DNA of 64,000 nt. It comes from Thermoplasmata archaeon (GTDB lineage: Archaea; Thermoplasmatota; Thermoplasmata; Lutacidiplasmatales; UBA184). The notes beneath the pieces were generated by a model that saw only the letters and a program-made list of their open reading frames with translations, did no database searches and was not told the origin of the DNA. Shown in pieces: positions 2,703-51,507 of this stretch (position 1 is its first letter; every line of letters starts with the position of its first letter). The stretch spans positions 8,095-72,094 of the forward strand of contig JAJZYH010000004.1 in assembly GCA_021798195.1 (NCBI GenBank), written 5' to 3'. The position numbers and the translations under genes were made by a program.

Positions 2703-3803
2703 CTACCGGCCCTTGGGATCTGGTTGGGACGGTTGGCTCCCTTCCTCGGGGCCTCCCGAAGGACTGGGCGCCCCGGTTTCGGGAAGCAGGTTCCCGTTGG
2801 GGAGCCCATGCGCGCTGGACTCTATGTCCAGGGTCAGCTCCGCAAGGTCGGCGGAGTACGACGCGATCCGGTCCATGGATTCCAGGAGGAGGCTCGCCGT
2901 GGCGGCGACGCTGGAGGGAAGACGAGGGAGCCTCTGGGCCAGGAGGAAGCGCTCCCAGAGGGCCGCCCGCTCCGAATGGATCCCCTCCGCGCGGTCGATG
3001 AGCTGATTGGCCCGGAGGGGGTCGGGGGCATCCAGAAGACCGGCGGCCTCGGCGAAGAGATCCATCACCTCTGCGTGGAATCGTTGCAGAGCGAGTCGGA
3101 GTTCCCCGGGGACGGCACCCTGGTTGAGCCGCTCGGATTCTCCGATCAACCGGATCGCGTGGTCGGAGATCCGTTCCAGCCCGCGGGCGGCGAGGAGGTG
3201 GTGAACCCCCTGCGACCAGGATGCGGGTCCCGACGGTGCCACGGGGACGATGGACCGACGGAGAAGGACCCGTTCCATCCACCATGCGAGGCGATCCACC
3301 TCGTCGTCCCGGGACGGGAGCCGGGAAAGATCGGGCCGCAGGGTCCCTTTGCCGAGGCACTCTCCGGATTCAGTGAGAAACGCACGAGTGAGTTGGGCCA
3401 TGCGACGCAGGAGTGCACCCGTGGAAAAGCCCTCCGGAGGTCCCATGTCCTTGAGGACCACGCTTTCCCGCCCCTCTTCCACCACCTCGAAGTGGGCCAC
3501 GCGCCGGACAAACTCCTTCACCACCTTGCGGATCTCCGGTGCGACCATTTCATCGTGCCGGAGGCGGATCGAGTCATAGCCACCGAGATAGGCCGCGATG
3601 AGCCGCCGGAAGAGGTACTCCGGTCGCTCGTCCCCCTCGACCTCCATGGAGAGCAACTGGTCCTGGGGGGCCCTGCGGAGGGAAGGCGCCACGAGGATAC
3701 CATCCCCCGGGATCCGGTGGAGGGCCACCTGGTTCCCCGCTTGGAGGCGCTGGCTCTGGAGCCATTTTCGGGGCAACGAGACCACCACTTCGCCCCCGCT
3801 CAT
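2703..3803 (-). CDS. phoU: phosphate uptake regulator: PhoU domains with an N-terminal AbrB/SpoVT swapped-hairpin domain
   Basis: N-terminal MSGGEVVVSLPRKWLQSQRLQAGNQVAL (AbrB-like) followed by two PhoU-like helical repeats (the DxxxR-type motifs DRLAWWMERVLL and DHAIRLIGESERL). Start chosen at M34 of the track ORF. Confidence 0.7.
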   Translation of the reverse strand: MSGGEVVVSLPRKWLQSQRLQAGNQVALHRIPGDGILVAPSLRRAPQDQLLSMEVEGDERPEYLFRRLIAAYLGGYDSIRLRHDEMVAPEIRKVVKEFVRRVAHFEVVEEGRESVVLKDMGPPEGFSTGALLRRMAQLTRAFLTESGECLGKGTLRPDLSRLPSRDDEVDRLAWWMERVLLRRSIVPVAPSGPASWSQGVHHLLAARGLERISDHAIRLIGESERLNQGAVPGELRLALQRFHAEVMDLFAEAAGLLDAPDPLRANQLIDRAEGIHSERAALWERFLLAQRLPRLPSSVAATASLLLESMDRIASYSADLAELTLDIESSAHGLPNGNLLPETGAPSPSGGPEEGSQPSQPDPKGR

Positions 3804-3894
3804 GCCCCGCAATTGGCGCAGCGCCCGTCCCTCGCCGTCCGGCCCGGGGCGCTTCCCACCGGCCGTGGCCCTCCCGGGTCGGCCGTCTCCCACT

Positions 3895-3995
3895 TTCTTC
3901 ATCTTTCTCCGGGTTGAAATTACATTGTCACATGACTATATAGATTATCTACATAGAATATATTGTCAAGCTGACTCTGACGGAGACCTCCGGTT
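3895..3995. promoter_or_regulatory. about 100-bp AT-rich island between divergent phoU and the ClC gene: probable bidirectional promoter/operator
   Basis: ttgaaattacattgtcacatgactatatagattatctacatagaatatattgtcaag. The GC content drops sharply within a 68% GC background. It contains near-palindromes (GTCAcaTGAC, TAGATTATCTA) and TATA-like runs. Confidence 0.4.
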
Positions 3996-7650: not shown

Positions 7651-7740
7651 CCGATCCCCCAAGACGTTCGTCCCCGGGCCGCCCTTGGCGGATCCATCGG
7701 GGGAGGTTTCAAATACGGAGCCGCCGTCGCAACGCGCCAT

Positions 7741-7815
7741 AGCGGGGTAGGGTAGTCAGGTTATCCCGACGGGCTCATAACCCGTAGATCCATGGTTCAA
7801 ATCCATGCCCCGCTA
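7741..7815 (+). tRNA. tRNA-Met (CAT), initiator type
   Basis: Cloverleaf AGCGGGG..CCCCGCU with an A1:U72 pair. Anticodon stem with three G:C pairs (ACGGG/CCCGU), loop CUCAUAA. T-arm CCAUGGUUCAAAUCCAUGG. TTTCAAATA (TATA-like) lies about 45 nt upstream. Confidence 0.8.
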
Positions 7816-8059
7816 CCCACTCCGAAGTTCAGGGACTTGGAGGTGTTGACCCGACCTCGTGGGCAACAGGGCCATCTCCCGTGGGAACGGGGGTGCGTAC
7901 TTCCAAGGGCCGCCCACGAGGGAGAGAGGAGGGAGAGTACGGCATGTCCTCCGTGTCGGGGTCCCTTTGCGACCGTCCGTATAGGCTCCATATGTCCCAC
8001 AGCCATTTGTGGACGGGCACATGCCGGGGGCAGGGGGGAGCGGATCGGAAGGATCGACC

Positions 8060-8668: not shown

Positions 8669-9064
8669 TCAGGCCAAGGGGCCCTCGCGCGAAGGTGGGC
8701 GGTAGCGGTACCATGCGAACCCGGACACCTGGGACAGGGGGATCCACCCGAAGTGTCGGCTGTCCCGGCTCCGAACCACATTGTCCCCGCGGACATCGAC
8801 CCAGAGTGCTCCCGAGGATTCCCGGATCGCGTGGACCCTCTTGATGAGCCACCGCTCCCGGGATTCCGGGTCCCGGAGCACCACGATCTCGCCGGGCTGA
8901 GGGGGCCGTATCCGGTATTCCTTTCGGTCCACGAACAAGCGATCCCCCGGGAGGAGCGTGGGGGACATGCTGTCGTCGATCACCTCCACCCGCCGACTCC
9001 TCCACCATCGGCTCCACGGGGAGCGCTTCCAGGACCACGTATGTCCAGAGGAGGTTTCCTCCAT
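8669..9064 (-). CDS. sodX: S26-family signal-peptidase-like protein, putative NiSOD maturation protease (SodX-like)
   Basis: Box B DDSMSPTL (Ser nucleophile), box D KRVHAI (Lys general base), box E GDNVVRSRDSRHFG. Divergently adjacent to sodN. Start uncertain; the upstream in-frame ATG at 9112 would add 16 aa. Confidence 0.6.
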   Translation of the reverse strand: MEETSSGHTWSWKRSPWSRWWRSRRVEVIDDSMSPTLLPGDRLFVDRKEYRIRPPQPGEIVVLRDPESRERWLIKRVHAIRESSGALWVDVRGDNVVRSRDSRHFGWIPLSQVSGFAWYRYRPPSREGPLA

Positions 9065-9110
9065 CGCTGGTTCCGCCGGGTTTAAGGCTCCGGGAGTTCT
9101 GCGGGAGGGC

Positions 9111-9638
9111 ATGTTCGGACTAAAGAGCTTCCGGAAGCGATTCTACGCCCTCTCCGACCACCTGCGCCCCCCCCTCCCGGTCTTCGCCCATTGCGACATC
9201 CCCTGCGGAATCTACGACCCGCATGAAGCCCAGATCGCCGCCCTCACGGTCATCCGGATGGATCAGTTGATCGGCGAGCTTCCTCCCCCGGCAGCCGATG
9301 CGAAGGCGGAGGAGAAACACGCGTACACCCACAAGCTCGCCCGGTACACCGCCGTCAAGGAGCAGCATGCGGAGAAGCTCAAGCATGAGATCCGGGTGAT
9401 CTACGGGGATTACATCACGGCGGACATGGTGAAGAAGTTCCCGGAGCTCCCGGACCTCGTCTTCAAGATCTGGAAGCAGGCATCCAAGGCACGCCAGGAG
9501 GTCAACTTGGCAGGCGCCCAGGAACTTCTGGCCAGCGTCCACCAGTTCGCCGAGGTCTTCTGGAAGACCAAGAACGTGGCGACCCGGAAGGTTCCCTCGA
9601 ACCAGAAATCGGGGGGAGAGATCGTCCTCCCGGCATGA
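9111..9638 (+). CDS. sodN: nickel superoxide dismutase precursor (NiSOD)
   Basis: Ni-hook motif HCDIPCGIYDP follows a 26-aa leader (MFGLKSFRKRFYALSDHLRPPLPVFA|HCD...) that would be removed to expose His1. The remainder matches the NiSOD four-helix bundle. Confidence 0.85.
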   Translation: MFGLKSFRKRFYALSDHLRPPLPVFAHCDIPCGIYDPHEAQIAALTVIRMDQLIGELPPPAADAKAEEKHAYTHKLARYTAVKEQHAEKLKHEIRVIYGDYITADMVKKFPELPDLVFKIWKQASKARQEVNLAGAQELLASVHQFAEVFWKTKNVATRKVPSNQKSGGEIVLPA

Positions 9639-9721: not shown

Positions 9722-10171
9722 GTGCCGATGGCTGAGGGATTTCGTCACATCACCGTCGCGCTGGATGGATCCGCCCACAGCGACCGCGCCTTGGATGTGG
9801 CGCTGGAGCTCTGCATGAGGTATGCAGCCGAATTGACGCTGGTCACGGTGGCGCCGCTCCCCCTCGTCCTCTCCCCCCCCGAACCTTGGGTGCCCCCCCA
9901 GGTCACCGACATCGAAGCGGGACGCTACAGGGACATCCTGGATCGGGCCCAGAAACGGTGCACCCAGATGGGAGTGAACCCCGCCCAGGCGATCTGCCTG
10001 GAAGGGCATGTGGCCGACGAATTGCTCACGTACCTCGAGAAGTCTCCCACCGATCTCTTGGTGGTGGGTTCCCGAGGCTCCTCCACGGCCAAGAGGCTCC
10101 TCCTGGGAAGCGTCTCCGATGCCCTGGTCCACCACGCGAAGTGCCCGGTCCTCGTGGTGAAGATGGGATAA
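9722..10171 (+). CDS. universal stress protein UspA family
   Basis: ITVALDGSAHSDRAL...LLVVGSRGSSTAKRLLLGSVSD...CPVLVV. An Usp-fold ATP-binding motif (GSRG..G..S). Confidence 0.8.
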   Translation: MPMAEGFRHITVALDGSAHSDRALDVALELCMRYAAELTLVTVAPLPLVLSPPEPWVPPQVTDIEAGRYRDILDRAQKRCTQMGVNPAQAICLEGHVADELLTYLEKSPTDLLVVGSRGSSTAKRLLLGSVSDALVHHAKCPVLVVKMG

Positions 10172-10185
10172 GGACGGAGGAGACC

Positions 10186-10899
10186 CTACTTCCCCTTCTT
10201 GGCGGCCTTTTCGTCCTTCGCGGAAGCCGCGGGGGGAGAGGCCTTCTCCCCCGGCTTCTTCGCATCCTTGGAGGGCGCCTCGGGCTTTCCAGCCGCCTCC
10301 TCGGTGGGGGGGGCCGCCGCCTCTTCGGTCGTCAGCGCGGCGGGCTTCTCCTCGAGTACCGGGGCGATGGCCGCCGCCCTCGCTTCCTCGACAAAGCCGG
10401 CCCGTTCCTCGACGAGGACACGGACGGGCGTGGGGAGCTTGGAGGAGGCCTTCCGGATCGCCTCCTTCGCGTCCGGCACGTTCTCGGAACGGCAGGCCAG
10501 GGTGATGAGCGTGTCCCCGATGTTGGCCCGGACGGCATGTCCGACCGGCTTCCCGAACGCAAGCCGCATCCCATCGGAGATCCGGTCCGCTCCGGCCCCT
10601 GTGGCCATCTTGTGCTCTCGGAGGATCTGATGCGGATACTTCCGCACCTTGACGTGGAAGTTGTTGGACGCCGCGCGGTCCATGACGCGGACGATGCTGA
10701 TCCGGGCCGCCTCCAGGGCCTTGTCCTGCACCTGGGCCGCCTCCTCCGCCAGCATGGAGAAATGGAACTTGTACTGCTGATGGACGTTCCCCGTGTCGAA
10801 CTGGGTGATCCGGCAGTGCGGGATCCCGCCCATGTACTCCTTCCGGGTGTAGATCTGTCCCTCGATCCGCCGGTACATCCGGTTCGGTTTCCGCACCAT
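10186..10899 (-). CDS. rpl10e: 50S ribosomal protein L10e (uL16) with an unusual ~70-aa Lys/Glu/Ala/Pro-rich C-terminal tail
   Basis: MVRKPNRMYRRIEGQIYTRKEYMGGIPHCRITQFDTGN is archaeal L10e. The tail reads ...EEKPAALTTEEAAAPPTEEAAGKPEAPSKDAKKPGEKASPPAASAKDEKAAKKGK. Confidence 0.85.
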   Translation of the reverse strand: MVRKPNRMYRRIEGQIYTRKEYMGGIPHCRITQFDTGNVHQQYKFHFSMLAEEAAQVQDKALEAARISIVRVMDRAASNNFHVKVRKYPHQILREHKMATGAGADRISDGMRLAFGKPVGHAVRANIGDTLITLACRSENVPDAKEAIRKASSKLPTPVRVLVEERAGFVEEARAAAIAPVLEEKPAALTTEEAAAPPTEEAAGKPEAPSKDAKKPGEKASPPAASAKDEKAAKKGK

Positions 10900-10970
10900 A
10901 GGCCCGCCGCCCACCCCCCACCTGTTTTTGAGCCTTTCGATGCGATGCTTCGGGGACCCCTCGGGGGGGT

Positions 10971-11981: not shown

Positions 11982-13538
11982 TCAGCTCATGAGGGTGAGC
12001 CGATACGACGCTTGCGGTGGGTCCTCCCCCGCCGGCATCGTCAGGGCATAGATTGAGGTCCAAGGCCGAATGCCCATGAGGAAGAACCTTCCCTTGACCG
12101 CACGCATCAGCAAACGGGTCTGGGCGAGGTCCCGGAAATACGTCACGAGCGGGTTGTTGCGGGACCCAATGACCAGGATGTGCAGGGGGCCTGCGGTCAG
12201 GTACGATTGCAGCACATAGGCCAGGGTCTCCGGTGTGTACTCGCGGCTCACGCTCCGGCCGATGTTTTCGACCCCTCCCAGGGTGCTGATCAACAGGTTG
12301 GGAGGGTGGGCCCCGGCCGGACCGCGGAGGAAATCGAACAGGGCGCTGGAACGGGCCCGGTAGGCCTCCCGCACCTGATAGGAACTCCCCGCGCCGGGGG
12401 GCCGGACGGCCCCTCGGATCTGGAAGGTCCTCGTGTCCTCCTCCTCCGAGGGGAATTCGGGGGACAGGTGGACGGTCCGGAGCGGCTCGCGCGGCTCCTC
12501 CAGAGGCGCGAGGGAGAGGACCCGGACGAGGCTCGTGAAGACCTCGGGCTTCACCACGGGCGCGAAGGACGCCCAGATCCCTTCGAGTCGGATGTGGGGA
12601 CGGGGTACGTACCCGACCCGGCGTCCCATGCGCAGAGCCGCCAGCATCGCAGAGCTGGACATCGCCTGGACCGGTCCGGAGGGGATCTCGTCATCGACCT
12701 CGAGGAGGGTCATGTGATTGCTCTGGAACGGCCCGAAAATATTGTGGTAATCCGCGCTGCCGGGCCAGAGGGATGTGCGGAAGTCCCCGGGAGGGGCCGG
12801 ATCGGCCCGGGCGGCGGGGGGACGATCCAATAGCTCACTCGGGGGGAAGCACTCGAAGGACCCTCCGAGAAGGGTGAACGGATATTCTCTCACCTGGACA
12901 TCCACCCTCCGGAGCTCGTCGATGGACAACCAGCGATATTGCCGCTCCTCGAGCGTCTGCTTGGTGAGCGTGAAGATCGCGTCGGCGATGTGGTCCAGAG
13001 GTCCGCCCGAGGACCCCTCGAGGAGTATGACGGCCCGGAACAACCTCTGGCCCACATGTTGGGCGAAGACCTCGATGAACCGGCTCGCCAGGGAATCCCG
13101 CCCCACGTCGCTCCGTTCCTCGTGCCACCACCGGCCCATGTTCTGGAGGAAGGCTTCCCAGGTGTCGACGACAATGGTGGCAGGTTTCTGGTCATCGCCG
13201 GATCGTAGCCAGGCATCGATCCAGGGTGGCAGCCTCCCGGGGGGCTCAGACGGGGATCCATCCGGAGGTCCCGGAGGTTGGGAAAGGTCCTCCAACCCGA
13301 AGACCGTCAAGGGGAGGGCGCTCTGCCAATACGGCTTCGCCAGGGCGCTCGCCTGTCGCCGTGTGAGGTGGGGGCTCACGTAGCTCCCCGCGGTCCCGAA
13401 TGCCTGGAGGAGGGACAGGGCGAACAGGGTCCGGCCGCTTCCCGCCTCCCCCCGGACCAGGAAGATCCCGCTCCGCGAAGTGGAAAGGAACCGGGCGATG
13501 GGAGGAGGGATCTCGCAGCGAGGGGGCATCGGGAACAC
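11982..13538 (-). CDS. KaiC/GvpD/RAD55-like RecA-superfamily ATPase, two-domain (second domain lacks a P-loop), paralogue A
   Basis: Walker A GEAGSGRTLFALSL in the N-terminal domain. C-terminal signature ...FLMGIRPWTSIYALTM... is shared with the paralogue at 21189-22733. Confidence 0.55.
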   Translation of the reverse strand: MFPMPPRCEIPPPIARFLSTSRSGIFLVRGEAGSGRTLFALSLLQAFGTAGSYVSPHLTRRQASALAKPYWQSALPLTVFGLEDLSQPPGPPDGSPSEPPGRLPPWIDAWLRSGDDQKPATIVVDTWEAFLQNMGRWWHEERSDVGRDSLASRFIEVFAQHVGQRLFRAVILLEGSSGGPLDHIADAIFTLTKQTLEERQYRWLSIDELRRVDVQVREYPFTLLGGSFECFPPSELLDRPPAARADPAPPGDFRTSLWPGSADYHNIFGPFQSNHMTLLEVDDEIPSGPVQAMSSSAMLAALRMGRRVGYVPRPHIRLEGIWASFAPVVKPEVFTSLVRVLSLAPLEEPREPLRTVHLSPEFPSEEEDTRTFQIRGAVRPPGAGSSYQVREAYRARSSALFDFLRGPAGAHPPNLLISTLGGVENIGRSVSREYTPETLAYVLQSYLTAGPLHILVIGSRNNPLVTYFRDLAQTRLLMRAVKGRFFLMGIRPWTSIYALTMPAGEDPPQASYRLTLMS

Positions 13539-21188: not shown

Positions 21189-22733
21189 ATGGAAGCCAAC
21201 ACGCGTCAGAACCTCGGAATGCCCCCCGAGGTCATTGATTTTCTCAATGGACGTGGGGGCCGGTCCCTCATCGTCAAGGGAGGGGCCGGGACCGGAAAGA
21301 CGACCTTCGGCCTGGAGCTCCTGGAGAAGCTGGGACGCCCCGGACAGAGCTTCTACCTCTCCACCCGGGTCTCCGATGACGCGCTGTACCGGCAGTTCCC
21401 GTGGCTCCGCGGAACCGAGATGCGGGCCCGCATCTTCGACGCGGGGAAGATGTTCCTGGAGACGCTCATGGCGCGGGAACGGGAAGTTCCCACCGAACCG
21501 CCCGCAGAGGTCAAGGAGAAGATCTCCACGGCCCGGGATTTCCTCAAGAGCATCGGACAGGAGCAGGCCCCCCCCACCAAGGTGGACCGGACCCAGCTCA
21601 CCGCGCTCCTCAAGCACACCCGGATGCCCGAGGTGGAGCACATGTACGACCGGGTCGAGGGCGTGCTCCCCGAGAAGGCGCTCCTCGTGGTGGACTCCCT
21701 CGAGGGGGTGACGCACAAGTACGGACTCGAGATGGAAGAGTTCGTGATGTGCCTGCAGAAGGACCTCGCGGAGAACTCCAACACCAACGTGGTGATGATC
21801 CTGGAGAAACCCGAGGCCGGAGGGATCGAATACCTCGTGGACGGTCTCCTCTCGTTCTCCCGGGAGGAATGGGAGGAGCGCCGGGTCCGGCACATGCGGC
21901 TCGACAAGCTCCGGGCCACCGCGATCCCAAGGCCCCGGTATGCGGTCACCCTGGCGGGGGGCCGCTTCCAGGCCCTGGGCATCTCCAACCAGCGGGTCAC
22001 CACCGGCCCCGCGAGCACTCCGTGGACTTCGGTACGGGACCCTCCTCGCTACTATTCCACGGGGATCCCCGACTTCGATTCCCTCCTGGGCGGCGGCTAC
22101 CAGACGGGCTCCTACAACGGGTTCGAGATCGACGTGAACGTCTCCATCGACGACTATTACCTCCTGTTCGTGCCCGCCTTCCTGAACTTCCTGTCGCAGG
22201 GACGGGGGATCATGGGGATCCTCGCGGGCGGCGAGTCGCCGGAACGGCTCCGGCAGATCCTCACGGCGTACATCCCCCCCGAAACGTTCGACAACCGGGT
22301 CCGCTTCACCGATTATTTCAACACCGAGAGTTCCCTGCCGTACGTCCTCCCGTTGGGTCGGGTGGGCCGGGAGGATGCCATCCGGACCCTTTCGGTGGCC
22401 GACCGCGCCGTCCGGGGGGCGGATCAGAAGCCCATCATGGAGTATACCGCGTTCGACACTCTGGAGTACCTCCAGGGGGACGCCCCGGCCATCCGCGGCC
22501 TGTTCATCGGGATGGAACGGACCAAGCTCCGGGGAGACGTGGGGATCGGTCTCCTGAAGCCCGGGCTCGTGGTAACGAGCGAGATCATCAACATGATGGA
22601 TACGTACTTCCGGGTCGTGAAGATCGACAACAGTCCATGCATCTACGGGATCCGGCCCCGGACGATGATCTACTCCATTTCCATCGACTCCCGCAAGGGG
22701 GTACCGTACACCACCCTCACCCCCATCGTCTAG
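21189..22733 (+). CDS. KaiC/GvpD/RAD55-like RecA-superfamily ATPase, two-domain, paralogue B
   Basis: Walker A GGAGTGKTTFGLELL. C-terminal ...IYGIRPRTMIYSISID... parallels paralogue A. About 514 aa. Confidence 0.55.
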   Translation: MEANTRQNLGMPPEVIDFLNGRGGRSLIVKGGAGTGKTTFGLELLEKLGRPGQSFYLSTRVSDDALYRQFPWLRGTEMRARIFDAGKMFLETLMAREREVPTEPPAEVKEKISTARDFLKSIGQEQAPPTKVDRTQLTALLKHTRMPEVEHMYDRVEGVLPEKALLVVDSLEGVTHKYGLEMEEFVMCLQKDLAENSNTNVVMILEKPEAGGIEYLVDGLLSFSREEWEERRVRHMRLDKLRATAIPRPRYAVTLAGGRFQALGISNQRVTTGPASTPWTSVRDPPRYYSTGIPDFDSLLGGGYQTGSYNGFEIDVNVSIDDYYLLFVPAFLNFLSQGRGIMGILAGGESPERLRQILTAYIPPETFDNRVRFTDYFNTESSLPYVLPLGRVGREDAIRTLSVADRAVRGADQKPIMEYTAFDTLEYLQGDAPAIRGLFIGMERTKLRGDVGIGLLKPGLVVTSEIINMMDTYFRVVKIDNSPCIYGIRPRTMIYSISIDSRKGVPYTTLTPIV

Positions 22734-35756: not shown

Positions 35757-36311
35757 TCAGGGTGCTGCCGACGGTTTGGATCTTCCGTCGGAGCGTCTTC
35801 GGGACCTCGAGTTCCCCGTGGCACGTCGGACAGCCGGAGGGCGGTGGGGCGAGGTCGCTCGGTAGAAGAGGGAGATGGAGCGCGCGGTTTTTCTTCCCGC
35901 CTCGACACGCACCCCGACGGCGACGAGTTCCTCGGCGCGGACGGGGAGGCCGATGCGGGAGACGAAGGCGGCGAGGTCGCGGGAGGTGAGGTCGTCCTGG
36001 CGGAGGGCGTCGGTGAGGGTGGGGAAGTCGACGGGAGGGAGGGGGAAGGGGCCGTCCTCGACGACGCCCGGTAGGGTAGGGCGAGGGACGGGATGGCCGT
36101 GGCGGGCGAGTTGGGCGTAGAAGGCATGGAGGAGTTGGTCGTCGTGCAGGGCCAATACCTTCCGCTCGAGTGCGGTGCGTTTCTCCGAGGTGAGGATGTC
36201 GAGACGGCCAAGGTAGAGTTCGGTCCGGTTTCGCACGCGGGATCCGTCGCGAAAAGCTCTGGCGACAACCCAGTAATCATGGCCGCGGTTAGGGCAAATC
36301 TCGAGGAACAT
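35757..36311 (-). CDS. transposase N-terminal part (orfA), separated from orfB by a -1 frameshift (programmed slippage or inactivating mutation)
   Basis: MFLEICPNRGHDYWVVARAFRDGSRVRNRTELYLGRLD resembles the N-termini of IS1634-group transposases. The same 5' segment recurs at 38880-39218. Confidence 0.55.
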   Translation of the reverse strand: MFLEICPNRGHDYWVVARAFRDGSRVRNRTELYLGRLDILTSEKRTALERKVLALHDDQLLHAFYAQLARHGHPVPRPTLPGVVEDGPFPLPPVDFPTLTDALRQDDLTSRDLAAFVSRIGLPVRAEELVAVGVRVEAGRKTARSISLFYRATSPHRPPAVRRATGNSRSRRRSDGRSKPSAAP

Positions 36312-36497
36312 GGTACCGGGACAAATGCTCTGGCGACATACCCTCCATTTCGGGTCACCACCGTCGAGATGGCAAGGACTGGCTGGTCCGGCGGCAACCC
36401 CTCGTTTGAAGCTATAGTCCCACAGCCTCGAGGACGCATGTATTTAAATGGGACTGCCGCATTTAAAAGAGAAAAACCTACGTGCTTGAGGTATCCC

Positions 36498-38414
36498 ATG
36501 GTGGTCGGCCTGACACTTTCCAGGCTAGGGAAACGATATGTAGGAACGATTGCCGCAATCGCCTGTGCGCTCATTCTAATCACCGCTGCCAGTCTTGCGC
36601 TTACCCGGACCGCCCCGCCTCCGGCTCCTCCTGCTATAAAGCCGGTCGCCGCATTCGGACCGAAACTCCTTGTCCATGAGCCCGGAGGTCGTAGCGCCCT
36701 TGCCAACAACACCACCATCAACATTCAGATCTTTTCGGCTGTCCCGAACGCGTTTCGTTCAACCGGCCTCCTCTTCTATCCGGTTTCACCACAGGACCAG
36801 TGGACCAATGGGGTAAACGAAGAACTCCTCAATGCCACACTCTTCCCGGGCAACAACACGACGGCCTTCTTCCTCGCTCCATCATTCAATACGATCGCTC
36901 AGGAGTGGACCGTTCTTCTCTCCCACGACCAGGGAAGGAATTTCCCGTCCCTAACCGTTGAGGCCGTGAAAACGGTGAACATGAGCGGCAACCTCTACCT
37001 CTACCAGTATTACAACAATCTCCCTTACAACCCGTTTGATCTCAAGGTAGTCAACCTGAACCAAACGGACCTTGCATTAGGAGGCGCCAGTTGGTTTGAT
37101 GGCACCGGGGTCAATGTTACTGACTACTCTCAAATTATCATGGCAAACCTTGAACTTAACCTGACGCTGGAATTCCCGAGCCACCCGATTCAGGTGGTGC
37201 CCGTACCCCCACCAAACTCCTTTAGAAGCGCCCACCAGATCCCCGCTGAACGTGGCCCGGCAGGCTGTGCTGTGCAAGGCGAGAGTTGTATCTACGAGTA
37301 TTACTATACCTATCCGAGCGTGACTACCAACACGCTGGTCAAGACCACGTTCGCCAACGGAACGTTACCATTGCTGGGTGTTCACATAGGACGGAACGCC
37401 GAAGGGGGCGGGTCAGTGATTGCCCTGAGCGCTGATGTCAATGTGTTGAATGATACCATCGAATTGAATTCTGTCCAACCGTATGAGAACGCTTCCGGAC
37501 AAATCACCACCACAATGAGCACATCCCCCTCGTTCGCGCACGAAGCCAACGTGAGCGTGGGCCAGGCGAATAACCAGTTTGATGCCATTCCCACCGGAAT
37601 TTCCAAGGACCTCGGGAACAACAACTCGGTCTCCTTGAATCGGACGACTGCCATTGTAGGAATCCAGGGCGTGGAGTACGAATTCCAGCACTACAAACGG
37701 GAGACCTACAACTACGTGGATTACTGGGAGAGAATGTGTTGCCCGCGTCCCAACGGTGACTGGGGTTGCTTTACCTATTTGCTTTCACAGACCGTTTCCA
37801 CAGTATATGATGGGCAATACACGGATGGCGAGATTGTCCATGTCAACTCCACGGCCGGCCTAGCCCTCCAGGCGGGGTTCATATCAATCTGGGCCGCCTG
37901 GGTCATTCAGCACACCTTGGCGAACGCAAGCAACGGAAGCGTGACGCTCACTACAAGCGGGACGGGCTCGAGCTACGAAGCCTCGACCATCTGGGCCGAC
38001 ACAAACGGTTATCTAGACGCCTCCAATGCATACAGTCAAGCTGCAAATCTGCTGGGGACCTTCTCCACCGCGCTGGGCCTGGGGCTGGCCATTGTCGATG
38101 CCTCCGCCGCGTTGAATGGAGCGGACTTTGATGCCACAGAGCCGACCGTGGTCGCAGATAGTCTCTCCCTCATTGCGGACACGATTGGAATGGCGGCGTC
38201 CGTATTGAACGCCTTCTCCTCCATCAGTGCGTACACAGGAACGCAGTCGATCACCCTTGGCTACGGATTCAGTAATGTCCCCGAAGCAGGATCAGGATCG
38301 CCATACACAATGGCCTTCTTCGAGAGTCAGAGCCCCGTGAGCTTGAGCGTGAACGGAAACACTTACTCGTTCTTCGCCCCCGAGGACTTTTTGAATGCGA
38401 CGGCGATTGCGTGA
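36498..38414 (+). CDS. secreted/anchored surface glycoprotein (S-layer-like), low-GC cargo gene of the composite element
   Basis: N-terminal hydrophobic anchor/signal (IAAIACALILITAASLALT) and more than 20 N-x-S/T sequons (NNTTIN, NATLFPGNNTT, NVTDYS, NLTLEF, NDTIELNS, NNNSVSLNRTT, NASNGSVTLTT...). The segment GC is visibly about 50% against about 68% for the flanks. An upstream AT-rich TATA-like box (ATTTAAAAG) sits about 30 nt before the ATG. Confidence 0.7.
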   Translation: MVVGLTLSRLGKRYVGTIAAIACALILITAASLALTRTAPPPAPPAIKPVAAFGPKLLVHEPGGRSALANNTTINIQIFSAVPNAFRSTGLLFYPVSPQDQWTNGVNEELLNATLFPGNNTTAFFLAPSFNTIAQEWTVLLSHDQGRNFPSLTVEAVKTVNMSGNLYLYQYYNNLPYNPFDLKVVNLNQTDLALGGASWFDGTGVNVTDYSQIIMANLELNLTLEFPSHPIQVVPVPPPNSFRSAHQIPAERGPAGCAVQGESCIYEYYYTYPSVTTNTLVKTTFANGTLPLLGVHIGRNAEGGGSVIALSADVNVLNDTIELNSVQPYENASGQITTTMSTSPSFAHEANVSVGQANNQFDAIPTGISKDLGNNNSVSLNRTTAIVGIQGVEYEFQHYKRETYNYVDYWERMCCPRPNGDWGCFTYLLSQTVSTVYDGQYTDGEIVHVNSTAGLALQAGFISIWAAWVIQHTLANASNGSVTLTTSGTGSSYEASTIWADTNGYLDASNAYSQAANLLGTFSTALGLGLAIVDASAALNGADFDATEPTVVADSLSLIADTIGMAASVLNAFSSISAYTGTQSITLGYGFSNVPEAGSGSPYTMAFFESQSPVSLSVNGNTYSFFAPEDFLNATAIA

Positions 38415-43515: not shown

Positions 43516-44739
43516 ATGGAGAGCCTCCGGTTCGCATTCATCTCCTCCCACCATCCCTCTGAAGGCGGTCAGGGGCTTGCCCACGTGGTCTCCTCGCTCT
43601 CGCAGGTCCTGGCGGGTCGGGGCCATCAGGTGACGGTCCTCTATCCGGTGTACACGCGGTCCAAGGATGCTCCGCGGGAAGAGCTCTGGAACGGGATCCG
43701 TTCCGTGCCCGTACCCTGGCACCGATTCGGGAGGCTCCCGTTCGGGAGGGACATCGAGTTCTCCTGGAATGCCGCACGGAGGCTGGATGGAGATCTCGAC
43801 ATCGTGGTGGTGAACAACGAGCACGGAGGACGCTTCGTGGTCCGCCGTTGCGAAACCCTCCGGAACGGCTCCAAGGCACGGCGGCCCGTGACCCTCATGG
43901 TCTTCCACGGGGTGGCACTCCGTTTCCTCGAGATGGGGCGCACCGATCGGCCGGACCGGCTCCGGGCGCGCCTGGGATATCGGGCCGACGCCGTCGCCTT
44001 GCGGTGGCTCGAGGGGGGCGCCGCCCGCCGCGCAGACGCCTGCGTGGCCTGCTCCCGCAAGGTGGCGCACGATGTGGCGACCCTCTACGGGGTCCCGGCA
44101 TCCCGGATCTCCGTGATCTACAACGGGGTGGACCCCACTCCGGAGCGGACACCTCCGGAGAAGAAGGAGGCCCGGGAGGAGTTGGGGATCCGCGACGAGG
44201 AGTTCTGCCTGTCCTTCCTGGCGAGGGACCCGCGGCGGAAGGGGTTCGATGTGGCCGTGGCCACCGTCCGGCTCCTGAGGGAGCGGGGGGTCCCGGCCAC
44301 GCTCCTCAACGTGGGGAACACGTGCCCGGGCTCGCCGGAGGTACGGAGCCTGGGCTCCCTCGACGCCCGAGGGAAGAGGCAGGCCCTCGCGGCCAGCGAC
44401 GTGTTCTTCCTTCCCACGTGGTACGAGGGCCTCCCGCTGGCGATCCAGGAGGCCGCCGCCATGGGGATCCCGGTGGTGACCACGCCGGAGGCGAACCTGG
44501 AGTGGGGCGTGGCGGGTCGGGATTACCTGGTGAACTCGCCCAACCGCCCCGAGGTCCATGCCGAGGCGCTCGCGTCCCTCTACCGGGAGCCGGAGCGGAG
44601 GGAGGCGATGGGCCTCAGGGGCCGGGAGACGCTGGGGGTACGCCCGTATTCTCTCCAGGCCCAGGAGTACGAGGAGTTGGGCCGGCGGATCCTGGGCGCT
44701 CCCCGGGGACGGGCCGCCGCCCTCTTCGGGTCCGGATGA
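43516..44739 (+). CDS. GT4-family glycosyltransferase
   Basis: GT-B C-terminal motif TWYEGLPLAIQEAAAMGIPVV (EX7E). The N-terminal domain FISSHHPSEGGQGLAHVVSSLSQVLAGRGHQVTV is typical of GT4. Confidence 0.75.
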   Translation: MESLRFAFISSHHPSEGGQGLAHVVSSLSQVLAGRGHQVTVLYPVYTRSKDAPREELWNGIRSVPVPWHRFGRLPFGRDIEFSWNAARRLDGDLDIVVVNNEHGGRFVVRRCETLRNGSKARRPVTLMVFHGVALRFLEMGRTDRPDRLRARLGYRADAVALRWLEGGAARRADACVACSRKVAHDVATLYGVPASRISVIYNGVDPTPERTPPEKKEAREELGIRDEEFCLSFLARDPRRKGFDVAVATVRLLRERGVPATLLNVGNTCPGSPEVRSLGSLDARGKRQALAASDVFFLPTWYEGLPLAIQEAAAMGIPVVTTPEANLEWGVAGRDYLVNSPNRPEVHAEALASLYREPERREAMGLRGRETLGVRPYSLQAQEYEELGRRILGAPRGRAAALFGSG

Positions 44740-47700
44740 TGAAAGCCACCAGAGCGGGCGCCACGAACCAGACCGCAAGGAGGAGGAGGGTGACGAGGCT
44801 CCCCAGGATCCCCTCCCCGAAGGCCCCCTGGACCCAGGGGAGCCCGATGGTGATGTTCTGACTCCCCGGCGGCACGACGAAGGCGGTGGCCCACCCGTCC
44901 ACCACGATCGAGGGAAGGAGGCCCACGGCGGTGTGCGCGGACCACCCCGCGGAGGCCGGGACACGGTCCACCAGGAGCCGGGGGCCGCCCTCCGGTGGGA
45001 GTTCCAGGGAGAGCGCCATGGAGCCGGGAGATCCGGAGGTCACGGTGCCGGTCTCGAGTTGCCCGGACGCAAGGAGCTCCCGGAGCTCGGAGAGGGGAGA
45101 GCCCGAGGTCGCCGGGACCAGGTCCACCAGATCCACGGTGACGTTCCCGGAGAGGACCCGGAGGGAGACCTCGTAGCTACCTATGCCGGAGGCCAAGGAG
45201 CCCACCGAGGAGTACCACTCTGGGGTCCCGGACCGGATCGCAGCGGTGACGTTGACGGGGCCCGGACACGGGGCCGCCGGGGTGGGATCCGAATATCCTC
45301 CCGGATCCGGGCAGAGGGAGATCCCCAGGGTCCCATTCCCCTGGGCCCGGACCGTGGCGCCCAGGGGACCCGGGCGCAGGACTTGGATCCGGGAGGAGGC
45401 GGAGCTCCCGGCCGGCCCACCTCCCCCCCAGCCCTGGCTCATCTCGGCGCCGGTCTCCCATTGGGACCACCCGCCCGATGAAGTGGCGAGGGAGCCCTTG
45501 ATCTGGTAGATCGCGGTGGGTCCTCCGCCGGGCACGGGGGCCAGCGCGGCGCTCAGGTCGGCCGCCGCGCGGTCGATCTGCGAGGGGGTGGCCCAAGCGA
45601 GGGTGGCCACGGTGCTCTCCCCCGGACCGGTGTGGAGGAGGGTCGCCACGGAGGCGGACCCCGTGAGGACCCCGAGGGGAACCCAGCGGAACCCGAGGGG
45701 GACGGGGCTCCACGCATCGACGGAGAACGTCTGGGAGCCCAGGGATACCTCAAGCTCTCCTTCCTGGGGCCCGAAGAAGACCTCGGCGAAGAGCGTCGCC
45801 CCGGGGGCGGTGGGGGAAGAGAGAGGGACCTGGAGGGGCGCTCCGCCAGTGGATCGGGCCCAGTCCTCCCAGGCCGCCAGGGGGATCCCTCCTTCGGTCT
45901 GGGGGGCCGCTTCCCAGGGGAGCCAGACACCCGGCGTCGTGGGGAGGAACGGGCTCGCTCCCAGGGAGTTCCAGGCGGCGGGGGCCACCGAAACGAGATC
46001 GCCGGGCGGGAGGGATTGGAAGAGCGCGTCGCTCCAACCCCCGGGAGTCTCCACGGTGAGGTTCCAGAGAGGCTGCGGAGGGAGGGGTCCTCCCGGGAGG
46101 AAGGCCACCGTGTCGTTCCGGAGGTAGCCCGGCCCTCCCGGAAGGTAGCCCGCCTCGAGGAGGAACTCCCGGTTGGCCAGGGCCACGGTGGCCCGGTCCG
46201 TGGCGGTGAGGATGCCCGGCGTGTCGTTGGTCCGGTAGAGTTCATCCCCGCCGGAGGCGAATCCCGGGGGGAGGTCCGCCTGGGCCGCCAGGGCCCGGGT
46301 AAGGTTCTCCGGGGAGTCCCATCGGTAGCGGATGTCGTGGGAGACCGACTGGTTGGGAGCCACCATCCACAGGCCGGTCCCCAGGAGCCCGAAGAGGCTG
46401 GGGGCGTGGGAAGTCTCGTTCTGGTAGAAGGATTCGTAGGTCCAGAGCACCGATCGCAGGGTCGGGCCCTCGGCTTCCACGCCGGTGGTGAGAGGGATGT
46501 AGAGTGCGTCGGCACTGGGGTAGACCACGAACGGGTCCGTGGTGGCCGGCTTCCCCGGTGCCGGAAAGTACGCCGGGTCAGGGGGGAAGAGGGCGATGCG
46601 CCCTCCGGGGGGCGCGAGCTCCGATGCGGTGGCGGCGAGCGGGGTGACCGGGGGCGCACGGATCATCTCCCCCCCGAGGCTTCCCGCCGCGAAGGGGAGG
46701 GCCCCCACCAACACGATGACGACGCAGGCGACCCCCCAGACCCGGGGAAGGGCGGGAGGGGACGACGGGAGGCGGGGGGACAGGGTCCTCCCCCGAAGAG
46801 GATTCCCCGGGGCACGGATCGTCCACCGGGGAAGTCCCTTCCCCAGGAGGAACGCAAGGGCGGGGAGGGCCACCACGTCGAACTTGTTGGGATCGTCGTT
46901 CACGGCGAACAGTGGCACGTGGGCCACCAGTTGCAGGTAGATGGGGCCCAGGGCGAGGGTGCCGGCGGACAGGAGGAGGAAGGGGAGCGAGAGGAGGCCG
47001 AAGAGGCGGCTCTGGGGATCCCCGCGAAGGAGGCCCCAGAGGAGGGCGCCTCCCAGCACCACCGAGAGGGCCCCGGCCGCGAGCGGACCGGCCGCCGGCG
47101 CCGCGAGGGCGGCCCAAGCCGAGTCGTAGGCGGGGGAGAAGTAGCCGTTCCCCGAGAGGAGGTTCCAGGGAGTGAGCTGTCCCTGGGTGAAGGCGAGGGT
47201 GTTGGCGATGGTGGCCACCTGGACCCCGGCCTGCCCCGTCCGTCGGGAGATCTCGGCGGCCGGCCACACCCAAACGAGGTTCAACCCCACGGCACCGGCG
47301 AGGATGATGAGGTCCCCCAGGAACCCATGCACCGTCGGGCGCCAGGGTCTCGGCGACCCTGCCTTGGACGAGCGGCGATGCCGGATCCAGATGAGTCCCG
47401 TGCGGAGGATCACGAAGGCGAGCCACGCGAGGGCGGCGAGGTAGAACAGGTGGTACTCCAGGAAGCCGACCCCTCCCAGGAGAACGAGGGCGAGGAGCGT
47501 GGCCTTCCGTTCTTCCGGGCCCAGGACCCGGGTCCCCATCACGGCGAGGAACGGGGGGAAGAGGAGGTAGGCCAGGAGGATGTTCTCGTGCCCGGCCACG
47601 AACCGGTTGAAGACCCACGGAGACAGGGCGAAGGCGAGCGACGCGATCCCTGCCGATCCGGTGGGGATCCCCAGATGCCGCGCCGAAAGGTAGAACGAGA

Positions 47701-48097
47701 GTCCCAGGCCCGCCTCCGTGAGGAGGAGGAGGGCCACGGCCCCCTCGCCGGCCGACCCCAGGGCGACCCCCAATCCCCCCAGGGCCGCGCCCAAGAGGAG
47801 ATCGTTGGTGAAGAAGGGCTCGAAGGTCCCCCCGGCCGGCTGGGGGTTCCAGGGGGTGGAGAACGCGAGGAGGTACGCGTGCCAGTTCCCGCCGCTGGGG
47901 GGGGTCACCACGTCGCCGCTGTAGAACGCGTCCCCCCACGGATGCAGGGCCGGCAGGAACGAGAGGAGGGCGAAGGAAGCCCAGACGATGAGACCGATCC
48001 CCAGGGCATGGCGCGGGACCCTGGCCCAACGCGCCAGCGACTTCGTTCCATCCCTCATGCGGCGGGAGACGGACGAACTGGGGGAAGGGTCGGTCAT
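44615..48097 (-). CDS. about 1160-aa polytopic membrane protein with a large extracytoplasmic domain and a C-terminal TM anchor: putative GT-C-type glycosyltransferase or surface-glycan assembly protein
   Basis: About 12 N-terminal transmembrane helices, then about 600 aa of extracytoplasmic sequence with N-x-S/T sequons, then a final TM (LLLLAVWFVAPALVAFII) and a basic tail. No WWDYG motif, so not a canonical AglB. Convergently overlaps the GT4 gene by about 125 nt. Confidence 0.55.
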   Translation of the reverse strand: MTDPSPSSSVSRRMRDGTKSLARWARVPRHALGIGLIVWASFALLSFLPALHPWGDAFYSGDVVTPPSGGNWHAYLLAFSTPWNPQPAGGTFEPFFTNDLLLGAALGGLGVALGSAGEGAVALLLLTEAGLGLSFYLSARHLGIPTGSAGIASLAFALSPWVFNRFVAGHENILLAYLLFPPFLAVMGTRVLGPEERKATLLALVLLGGVGFLEYHLFYLAALAWLAFVILRTGLIWIRHRRSSKAGSPRPWRPTVHGFLGDLIILAGAVGLNLVWVWPAAEISRRTGQAGVQVATIANTLAFTQGQLTPWNLLSGNGYFSPAYDSAWAALAAPAAGPLAAGALSVVLGGALLWGLLRGDPQSRLFGLLSLPFLLLSAGTLALGPIYLQLVAHVPLFAVNDDPNKFDVVALPALAFLLGKGLPRWTIRAPGNPLRGRTLSPRLPSSPPALPRVWGVACVVIVLVGALPFAAGSLGGEMIRAPPVTPLAATASELAPPGGRIALFPPDPAYFPAPGKPATTDPFVVYPSADALYIPLTTGVEAEGPTLRSVLWTYESFYQNETSHAPSLFGLLGTGLWMVAPNQSVSHDIRYRWDSPENLTRALAAQADLPPGFASGGDELYRTNDTPGILTATDRATVALANREFLLEAGYLPGGPGYLRNDTVAFLPGGPLPPQPLWNLTVETPGGWSDALFQSLPPGDLVSVAPAAWNSLGASPFLPTTPGVWLPWEAAPQTEGGIPLAAWEDWARSTGGAPLQVPLSSPTAPGATLFAEVFFGPQEGELEVSLGSQTFSVDAWSPVPLGFRWVPLGVLTGSASVATLLHTGPGESTVATLAWATPSQIDRAAADLSAALAPVPGGGPTAIYQIKGSLATSSGGWSQWETGAEMSQGWGGGGPAGSSASSRIQVLRPGPLGATVRAQGNGTLGISLCPDPGGYSDPTPAAPCPGPVNVTAAIRSGTPEWYSSVGSLASGIGSYEVSLRVLSGNVTVDLVDLVPATSGSPLSELRELLASGQLETGTVTSGSPGSMALSLELPPEGGPRLLVDRVPASAGWSAHTAVGLLPSIVVDGWATAFVVPPGSQNITIGLPWVQGAFGEGILGSLVTLLLLAVWFVAPALVAFIIRTRRGRRPVPGERPGSAGPTPRTPGPGENTGVPPASPGP

Positions 48098-48137
48098 GGG
48101 ACGGGTAGGGTCCCTCCCCATGGGAAGCATCCCCCCA

Positions 48138-48773: not shown

Positions 48774-49627
48774 ACGTCGGGGTCATCCGGAAGGAAACCC
48801 TGGAACTCCGAGGTTCCCGGGAATCCCCGTCGCGCCGCCTGGCCGAGGATCTCCTCAAGGGGTCCCCAGAGCGGCTGGAGGGGGATGGCTTCCCGGACGC
48901 GGTCTTCGCCTCTTGGCCCCACGGGGTGGGGAGGAGGCGGGGGATCGGCGAGGAATCCCGTGCGGGTCCCCCGCCAGAACCGGCCCGCTCGGACCGCCTC
49001 CCGGAGCCGGCGCTCCGTCGCCTGGACGAGCCGGAAGCTCCCCGAGATGCTCCAGCAGAGGAGCCCCGCCTGTCTCCGGATCCACTCCAGGGAGGACGGA
49101 TCGAGCCGGGCGTCGTGGTCCATTGATGCCGCCTCGGGGATCTCCCTTGCACTCCCCAGGGCACGGGGATCCGGACGGGCCCGGTAGACACCGGCGACCC
49201 ACCGTGGGAGCCCGCCGGCCCGCTTCACCAGGGCGTGCGACGCCGCATTCCCCTCCTCCACGGTGAGGCGGACGGTGTGGATGCCCCGCTCCCGCGCCCG
49301 AGCGAGGGCGAACCGTGTGAGGAGGAGGCCCAGTCCCCGCCCCCGGTCCTCCGGGGCGATCCGGATGGCGTTGAGCCAGCCCTCCCCTTCCCCCAGATCC
49401 TCGAGGCGCAGGATGCCCAGGAGAGTCTCTCCCCGGAAGATCCCCAGGACCCAGGGTTGGGCCATCCACTCTTCCAGGTTCGGGAGAAGGTAGTCCGAGG
49501 GGACCGCCCGGGAGAGGAGGTCCCGGGCGGCCAGGAGATCCCCGGGCAGGGTGACCTCTCGGAGGATGAGGTTCCCCTCGGCCTTCCACTGCGTGGAGGT
49601 CTCCGGGGGGGACTTTGGGGCGGTCAC
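48692..49627 (-). CDS. GNAT-family acetyltransferase with a C-terminal extension, translationally coupled to mutL
   Basis: Acetyl-CoA motif DRGRGLGLLLTRFALARA. A candidate GTG start overlaps the mutL TGA stop (GTGA). An alternative ATG at 49465 would leave too short an N-terminus for a GNAT fold. Confidence 0.5.
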   Translation of the reverse strand: MTAPKSPPETSTQWKAEGNLILREVTLPGDLLAARDLLSRAVPSDYLLPNLEEWMAQPWVLGIFRGETLLGILRLEDLGEGEGWLNAIRIAPEDRGRGLGLLLTRFALARARERGIHTVRLTVEEGNAASHALVKRAGGLPRWVAGVYRARPDPRALGSAREIPEAASMDHDARLDPSSLEWIRRQAGLLCWSISGSFRLVQATERRLREAVRAGRFWRGTRTGFLADPPPPPHPVGPRGEDRVREAIPLQPLWGPLEEILGQAARRGFPGTSEFQGFLPDDPDVWEVNPACGLRRGDPWGYRVAVYEVST

Positions 49628-51444: not shown

Positions 51445-51507
51445 CGGGCCGCTGAGGTCCCCCGGGTCCTTGAGCGTTTCCGATAGCGAAGCCCTCTCCG
51501 ACCCCCC

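Follow-up and report, generated by a model that had tools for sequence, protein, structure and literature searches.

We identified a two-gene nickel superoxide dismutase (NiSOD) module, made up of sodN and a divergently encoded gene for a SodX-type S26 peptidase, in a Thermoplasmata archaeon. The locus lies in the window, by which we mean the whole 64-kb stretch of DNA that was analysed, and we put the probability that it is a standard module working by the canonical mechanism at about 90%. The sodN gene would be translated as a 175-aa precursor, and a cytoplasmic, anchorless SodX-type S26A peptidase would cut it after Ala26 (V-F-A/H), making His27 the new N-terminus. The free amine and imidazole of His27, the backbone amide of Cys28, and the thiolates of Cys28 and Cys32 would then form a Ni(II)/Ni(III) hook able to dismutate superoxide. 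The remainder of SodN is predicted to be a four-helix bundle and, by analogy with Streptomyces, would be expected to form a hexamer. The pair appears to have reached the clade from bacteria through a common ancestor, with Chloroflexota as the closest named relatives, and to have been inherited as a unit thereafter. It now seems to be driven by an archaeal TATA-type promoter, with a probably leaderless sodN mRNA. The coordinates of the features are listed in Table 1.

Table 1. Features of the sodX-sodN locus, in window positions. Residue numbers of the peptidase refer to the 131-aa form, and conservation of its residues to 59 aligned SodX sequences.
Feature	Position	Strand	Remarks
sodX-type S26 peptidase gene, 131 aa	8669..9064	-	likely start ATG 9064; Peptidase_S26 match
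Box E, GDNVVRSRDSR	8756..8788	-	D101, S102, F105 and G106 at least 97% conserved
General-base Lys75, IKRV box (IKRVHAI)	8840..8842	-	K75 and R76 invariant
Catalytic-Ser box SMSPTL, Ser32	8954..8971	-	Ser32 invariant
TATA-like box TTTAAG	9081..9086	+	lies in the 46-nt intergenic region, with the sodN ATG about 25-30 nt downstream
sodN, 175-aa NiSOD precursor	9111..9638 (stop codon included)	+	ATG at 9111; support from Pfam, NCBIfam, PDB and AF2
Leader (pro-peptide) MFGLKSFRKRFYALSDHLRPPLPVFA, 26 codons	9111..9188	+	Ala at -1; fixed ATG-to-His distance
Ni-hook HCDIPCGIYDP (His27, Cys28, Cys32, Tyr35)	9189..9221	+	aligns with residues 1-11 of Streptomyces NiSOD
C-terminal tail, about 20 aa, predicted beta hairpin	9576..9635	+	PDB alignment stops at residue 155

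sodN encodes an ordinary nickel superoxide dismutase

The sodN open reading frame is a genuine, ordinary NiSOD gene, matching the family far beyond chance. Its product scores 141 bits (3.2e-41) against Pfam Sod_Ni (PF09055; cutoff 25) and 145 bits (1.5e-42) against the NCBIfam sodN equivalog TIGR02753 (cutoff 90). These results confirm the reading of a first-pass annotation made from the letters of the window, which had placed here a sodN gene with a 26-aa leader followed by HCDIPCGIYDP.

A phmmer search of the PDB retrieved the NiSOD structures 1t6u and 1q0d at E about 1e-16. The alignment shows a 13-residue insertion separating helices 1 and 2 when SodN is compared with Streptomyces NiSOD. 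An AF2 model built on 42 homologues, with a mean pLDDT of 88, has a right-handed four-helix bundle as its core. Foldseek superposed this model on 1t6u_A and 3g50_A with a target-normalised TM of 0.90 and an rmsd of about 2.1 Å. The best 16 PDB matches were all NiSOD, and the following ones had E > 0.5. The hook was modelled at low confidence, as expected without metal or cleavage. Beyond the part that aligns with the crystallised enzymes, the model places strands at residues 158-162 and 170-174 of the tail, where P162, S163, Q165, K166, G168, G169, V172, and P174 are invariant across 42 aligned sequences.

The protein is 100% identical to a public entry (P0001), which is called there as 223 aa from an upstream start. 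The same over-extended 223-aa call is found on four public contigs of the window's lineage (L081-L084, e.g. GCA_027378455.1). On these contigs no S26 peptidase gene is called between the GNAT gene and sodN, so that sodX is unannotated in this lineage. Both the 223-aa sodN and the missing sodX are annotation errors, which the first-pass reading of the locus corrects.

A leader of fixed length precedes an invariant Ni-hook

The precursor starts with the leader MFGLKSFRKRFYALSDHLRPPLPVFA and continues with HCDIPCGIYDP; the downstream stretch after the leader is HCDIPCGIYDPHEA. The window and 78 of the 79 scorable related loci all have an ATG exactly 26 codons ahead of the hook histidine; one further locus is cut off upstream and therefore unscored. 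Across 42 aligned sequences the leader follows the consensus MSAxxRxRxxxxRLRDAVxPPxxVYA, with D16, P20, P21, and A26 nearly invariant, and the AF2 model shows a helix at residues 4-18.

The first-pass annotation had singled out this leader as long compared with the about 14 aa that it gave for Streptomyces. The leader does exceed that figure, but Streptomyces is an unusually short comparator: among representatives of the family at 50% identity, leaders are mostly 15-26 aa long, with 20 or 22 the commonest lengths. The 26-aa leader thus sits at the long end of the usual range and is no departure from the family. Its fixed length across the clade is mildly novel and a small addition to what is known.

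The alanine at position -1 is nearly invariant in the clade and invariant in the family representatives inspected, and position -3 is usually small or aliphatic. This pattern fits the specificity of S26 peptidases. Cleavage just before the histidine, as proposed in the first-pass annotation, agrees with a 26-aa leader that ends in a conserved alanine, and the predicted cut falls between Ala26 and His27.

Immediately after this site, the entire segment from H27 to Q41, including His27, Cys28, Cys32, and Tyr35, is invariant in the 42 aligned sequences. Residues H27, C28, D29, I30, P31, C32, G33, I34, and Y35 align with residues 1-9 of 1t6u. In the phmmer alignments to 1t6u and 1q0d, His27 pairs with His1 of the crystallised mature Streptomyces enzyme.

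The divergent gene encodes an anchorless S26 peptidase

The longest peptidase open reading frame spans 8669..9112 on the minus strand (147 aa). It contains all the S26 boxes that had been read from the letters (SMSPTL, KRVHAI, and GDN..SRDSR), and its product matches Pfam Peptidase_S26 at 61 bits (1.5e-16). For comparison, 59 SodX sequences of the clade were recovered by a start-codon scan and aligned. The RDSRxFG box is conserved among them, as are the catalytic residues (Table 1).

The best NCBIfam match is the SodX model TIGR02754, at 59.2 bits against a cutoff of 63.25; eight clade relatives score 40-69.5 bits on the same model, two of them above the cutoff. All nine proteins also pass the cutoff of 47 for the bacterial signal peptidase I model TIGR02227, on which the window peptidase scores 58.5 bits. 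On the archaeal signal peptidase I (S26B) model TIGR02228, the window peptidase reaches 29.4 bits, below the cutoff of 51.85, and the nine proteins score about 29 bits or less. No TM segment was found in the window peptidase, whose maximum Kyte-Doolittle average over 19 residues is 0.36, or in the 59 clade sequences, where the maximum 19-residue hydropathy is at most 1.33. The protein thus passes the catalytic-domain profile TIGR02227 and lacks the N-terminal TM anchor of a LepB-type enzyme. Taken together, the profile scores and the absence of a hydrophobic segment point to a minimal, soluble, bacterial-type S26A Ser/Lys enzyme and not to an anchored Sec peptidase.

Because the TIGR02754 score falls below its cutoff and the nine proteins pass TIGR02227 as well, the assignment as SodX leans on context, size, and lack of an anchor. 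These same properties bear on whether the gene might encode a general Sec-type signal peptidase, or another housekeeping S26/S24 enzyme, that merely lies beside sodN. The passing score on TIGR02227, set against a score just short of the SodX cutoff, would be compatible with such an enzyme. However, the anchor is absent from the window protein and from all 59 relatives, the proteins are only 125-150 aa long, the score on the archaeal signal peptidase model is poor, and the gene is the direct divergent neighbour of sodN in 79 of 79 loci while other neighbours vary. In addition, JGI annotates many of the homologues as NiSOD maturation protease. We therefore regard a housekeeping role as scarcely credible, and retain the SodX-type assignment proposed in the first-pass annotation, which had named an anchor of its own on the peptidase as the observation that would speak against it.

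The sodX gene appears to be frameshifted or split in two long-read MAGs, L030 (about 3560..3910) and L039 (about 3555..3958). The C-terminal half is lost or lies in a second alignment piece, which could reflect either an assembly indel or real gene decay.

The two genes are arranged around a single TATA-like box

When 79 loci were anchored on the sodN ATG, a conserved motif, CCGGCAnCTTTATCC, emerged at positions -37..-23. No other AT-rich peak occurs over the 150 nt on each side of the ATG; this one has 70-74% AT against a background of about 25%. From what is generally known of archaeal promoters, a TATA box located 25-30 nt before the start codon implies a leaderless mRNA. The TTTAAG box of the window would accordingly act as an archaeal TATA-type promoter, and the sodN mRNA is probably leaderless. 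A search of the 150 nt flanking the sodN ATG on each side found no second conserved TATA-like box that could serve sodX, and no separate sodX promoter was identified in this region.

In 58 of 78 loci, sodX starts (with ATG, TTG, or GTG) at a distance of 29-33 nt from the sodN ATG, most often exactly 30, and in most relatives the start codon directly abuts the TATA-like box. The window and its nearest relative, L001, have CCC at this abutting position. The likely start in the window is therefore ATG 9064, giving the 131-aa protein and the 46-nt intergenic region. An alternative is that sodX starts at ATG 9112, so that the two start codons overlap in the CATG at 9110-9113 and no intergenic promoter region is left. 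Indeed, no stop codon interrupts the reading frame before 9112, and L001 shares this layout. Yet this start would put 47 residues ahead of the Ser box, compared with 31 from ATG 9064 and 26-33 in relatives; residues 1-16 of the 147-aa form are unconserved beyond the nearest relative, and the longer form reads through the conserved TATA-like box. We consider the 9112 start unlikely and use the 9064 start throughout.

Because the sodX start abuts the box in most relatives, no second TATA-like box is visible, and sodN is apparently leaderless, the two genes could share one core promoter. Such a compact promoter could be read bidirectionally or in a mutually exclusive manner, coupling the levels of the protease and its substrate. 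The fixed 26-aa leader may likewise have a role beyond that of a cleavage tag, for example in holding back nickel binding or folding. The full proposal, in which the clade has rebuilt the bacterial sodX-sodN module on a single TATA box, with a shared core promoter and a leader with an extra role, is speculative and on balance improbable. The compact single-TATA architecture of the divergent pair, together with the fixed leader length, nevertheless offers a mildly novel angle.

Genomic context of the module

The host of the pair is archaeal. A Pfam scan of about 50 ORFs of the window identified L10e, a PAN-type proteasomal ATPase, TFB (TFIIB), a proteasome subunit, FttA/aCPSF1, and Cdc48, in line with the archaeal setting described in the first-pass annotation; the gene called pantoate kinase there is a GHMP-family kinase in our scan. 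Other genes encode alanyl-tRNA synthetase, succinate dehydrogenase A and B, MutS, and MutL. The window has a GC content of 68%, and the GC3 values of sodN (0.85) and sodX (0.83) match those of their neighbours. The first-pass annotation had further proposed a nickel-dependent oxidative-stress defence, a function that the module would be expected to provide; the about 50 ORFs scanned in the 64-kb window included none for nickel uptake or a chaperone.

Directly after sodN lies a universal stress protein (Usp) gene, at 9722..10171 (+), which is found at this position only in the closest relatives, in 4 of 80 loci, and is probably not part of the NiSOD module. In ribosomal protein L10e, encoded at 10186..10914 (-), the Ribosomal_L16 domain stops near residue 166 and is followed by an Ala-, Glu-, Lys-, and Pro-rich C-terminal tail of about 70 aa.

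Rfam matches in the window consist of only three tRNAs. One of them, a tRNA-Met at 7740..7819, coincides with a break in similarity between related contigs. From 7795 onward, L081, L083, and L084 share 99.8% identity with the window; upstream of that point they are wholly different. The break falls inside the tRNA, of which the last 25 nt alone are kept. Upstream of it, these three contigs have small ORFs and a gene for RVT_3 (RNase H-like), and they lack an intact tRNA. The pattern suggests an element integrated into tRNA-Met in those strains, the window and L082 having the unoccupied arrangement.

Several other genes of the window stand out. Two large GvpD/KaiC-like P-loop ATPase paralogues are encoded at 11982..13538 (-) and 21189..22733 (+). 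The latter matches the GvpD P-loop and basic-region domains, and no gas-vesicle genes were seen in the window. A bacterial-type MutL and MutS pair occupies 49624..54120 (-). Two large ORFs have no Pfam match, one of 773 aa at 36093..38414 (+) and one of 1171 aa at 44615..48130 (-). The ORF at 36093..38414 lies in a stretch with a GC3 of 0.65, compared with 0.8-0.9 elsewhere, and because of this clearly lower value it may be foreign DNA or no real gene.

The sodN-sodX pair is conserved and of probable bacterial origin

SodN has 5,701 database homologues. The best 120 are mostly 175-177 aa long, and those with names are called 'Thermoplasmata archaeon' or 'Euryarchaeota archaeon'. A scan of GTDB species-representative genomes yielded 222 matching stretches, and the locus counts given here refer to the best 80 of these. 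Two of the best 80 carry GenBank titles that say only 'bacterium'; the others are Thermoplasmata MAGs, UBA184 among them, from soil, peat, and comparable sources. In the window and in all 79 of these loci that have an upstream flank, the gene directly upstream of sodN is a divergent S26 gene, so the pair is conserved in the relatives examined, comprising at least 79 species-level genomes.

The Usp or L10e flank of the window recurs in only 4 of the 80 loci by tblastn synteny. Since the flanks differ in all the others, the pair behaves as a conserved unit. Neither the tblastn synteny of the 80 loci nor the called genes of public contigs revealed a third conserved gene beside it. Clustering of the flanking ORFs of the 80 loci was uninformative, being dominated by spurious long ORFs at about 68% GC.

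In a neighbour-joining tree of SodN, the 80 archaeal sequences form a single clade that includes no outsider and is nested among non-Streptomyces NiSODs. Among close representatives beyond this clade, just one carries an organism name, a Chloroflexota protein (MCI0889386.1, cluster of P0264; 56% identity). It agrees with the window SodN in overall length (172 aa), in its tail, and in a leader with the LDRLSPPxxVxA motif, although the leader measures 23 aa instead of 26 and the host is bacterial. As this is the sole organism name among the nearest bacterial sisters, the donor lineage is loosely indicated. Named SodX relatives belong to Chloroflexi and Actinomycetota. The bacterial-type S26A scores of the peptidase, together with Chloroflexota as the sole named near relative of SodN, make a bacterial origin of the two-gene module reasonable. 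We infer that an ancestor of the Thermoplasmata clade took up the pair from bacteria. The divergent peptidase in 79 of 79 loci argues that the transfer is old and that the pair has been inherited within the clade, with no recent arrival.

The first-pass suggestion that the whole module was acquired horizontally is thus upheld in so far as the proteins are of bacterial type, with the qualification that the event appears to be old and clade-wide. Two bacterial-type proteins would also be expected if the pair had only recently entered this genome by horizontal transfer or came from a mis-binned bacterial fragment, and a strain-variable junction at a tRNA-Met lies 1.3 kb from the pair. That junction, at 7795, is outside the pair, however, and all four strain contigs carry both genes. 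The GC3 of both genes is host-like, the archaeal TATA-type promoter is common to 79 genomes, and the Thermoplasmata sequences are monophyletic. Contamination or mis-binning was rejected on the ground that archaeal core genes lie on the same contiguous 64-kb stretch as the pair. A recent arrival is therefore very unlikely, and we treat the module as a clade-wide trait.

The two loci titled 'bacterium', L001 (JAKBKR010000156.1) and L035 (DAIDCO010000016.1), carry sodN and sodX of the Thermoplasmata clade. The Usp of L001 is also of this clade, and its SodN is 96% identical to that of the window. Both labels are probably wrong.

Relation to known systems

The best-characterised point of comparison is Streptomyces coelicolor, in which sodN (SCO5254) and sodX (SCO5255) are neighbours with a conserved intergenic region between them (PMC3919588). 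The dependence of NiSOD on its cognate peptidase is established (Eitinger 2004, as cited in PMC3919588 and PMC8346466). The archaeal module shares with this system (structures 1T6U and 1Q0D) the adjacent sodN and sodX genes, the hook HCDxPCGxYDP, the four-helix bundle, an anchorless Ser/Lys S26 peptidase, and, as predicted here, exposure of His1 by a cut after alanine. The two dismutases are about 34% identical over the mature domain. Besides the leader length, they differ in the 13-aa insertion between helices 1 and 2 and the tail of about 20 aa (predicted beta hairpin), both absent from the Streptomyces enzyme. The promoter is of the archaeal TATA type here, whereas the Streptomyces one is bacterial and under Nur and a small RNA.

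The first-pass annotation had regarded NiSOD as characteristic of bacteria, a view that is out of date (bioRxiv 10.1101/2021.01.12.426412, PMC9287336, PMC10783094). Sutherland 2021 attributed archaeal NiSOD to several inter-domain transfers (bioRxiv 10.1101/2021.01.12.426412). Sheridan 2022 listed NiSOD alongside MutLS as a stress trait of Lutacidiplasmatales, the named order to which UBA184 belongs (PMC9287336), and the window also holds MutS and MutL. A 2023 study of NiSOD in MGII (Poseidoniales) likewise described an inter-domain gain; the MGII sequences group with Cyanobacteria (PMC10783094), whereas the closest named relative of the window's clade is Chloroflexota. The published cases thus resemble the present one in their archaeal hosts and their inter-domain gain. 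Archaeal NiSOD by inter-domain transfer is already known, and the pair in this archaeon is not new in kind. The literature searched contained no experimental data on any archaeal NiSOD.

Neither bioRxiv 10.1101/2021.01.12.426412 nor PMC10783094 mentions sodX or a peptidase, and the clade-wide co-occurrence of sodN and sodX is therefore a modest addition to them. By-products of this work are the annotation correction for the lineage, evidence that archaeal NiSOD travels with a bacterial-type maturation protease, and a description of how the module has been fitted with an archaeal promoter.

For the organism, the locus indicates an archaeon with a complete and apparently functional nickel-dependent superoxide defence, a function predicted from its genes. 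Such a defence would fit the aerobic, soil-dwelling lifestyle proposed for related Thermoplasmata, in a window that also encodes succinate dehydrogenase and MutS/MutL, while adding little new biology to that picture.
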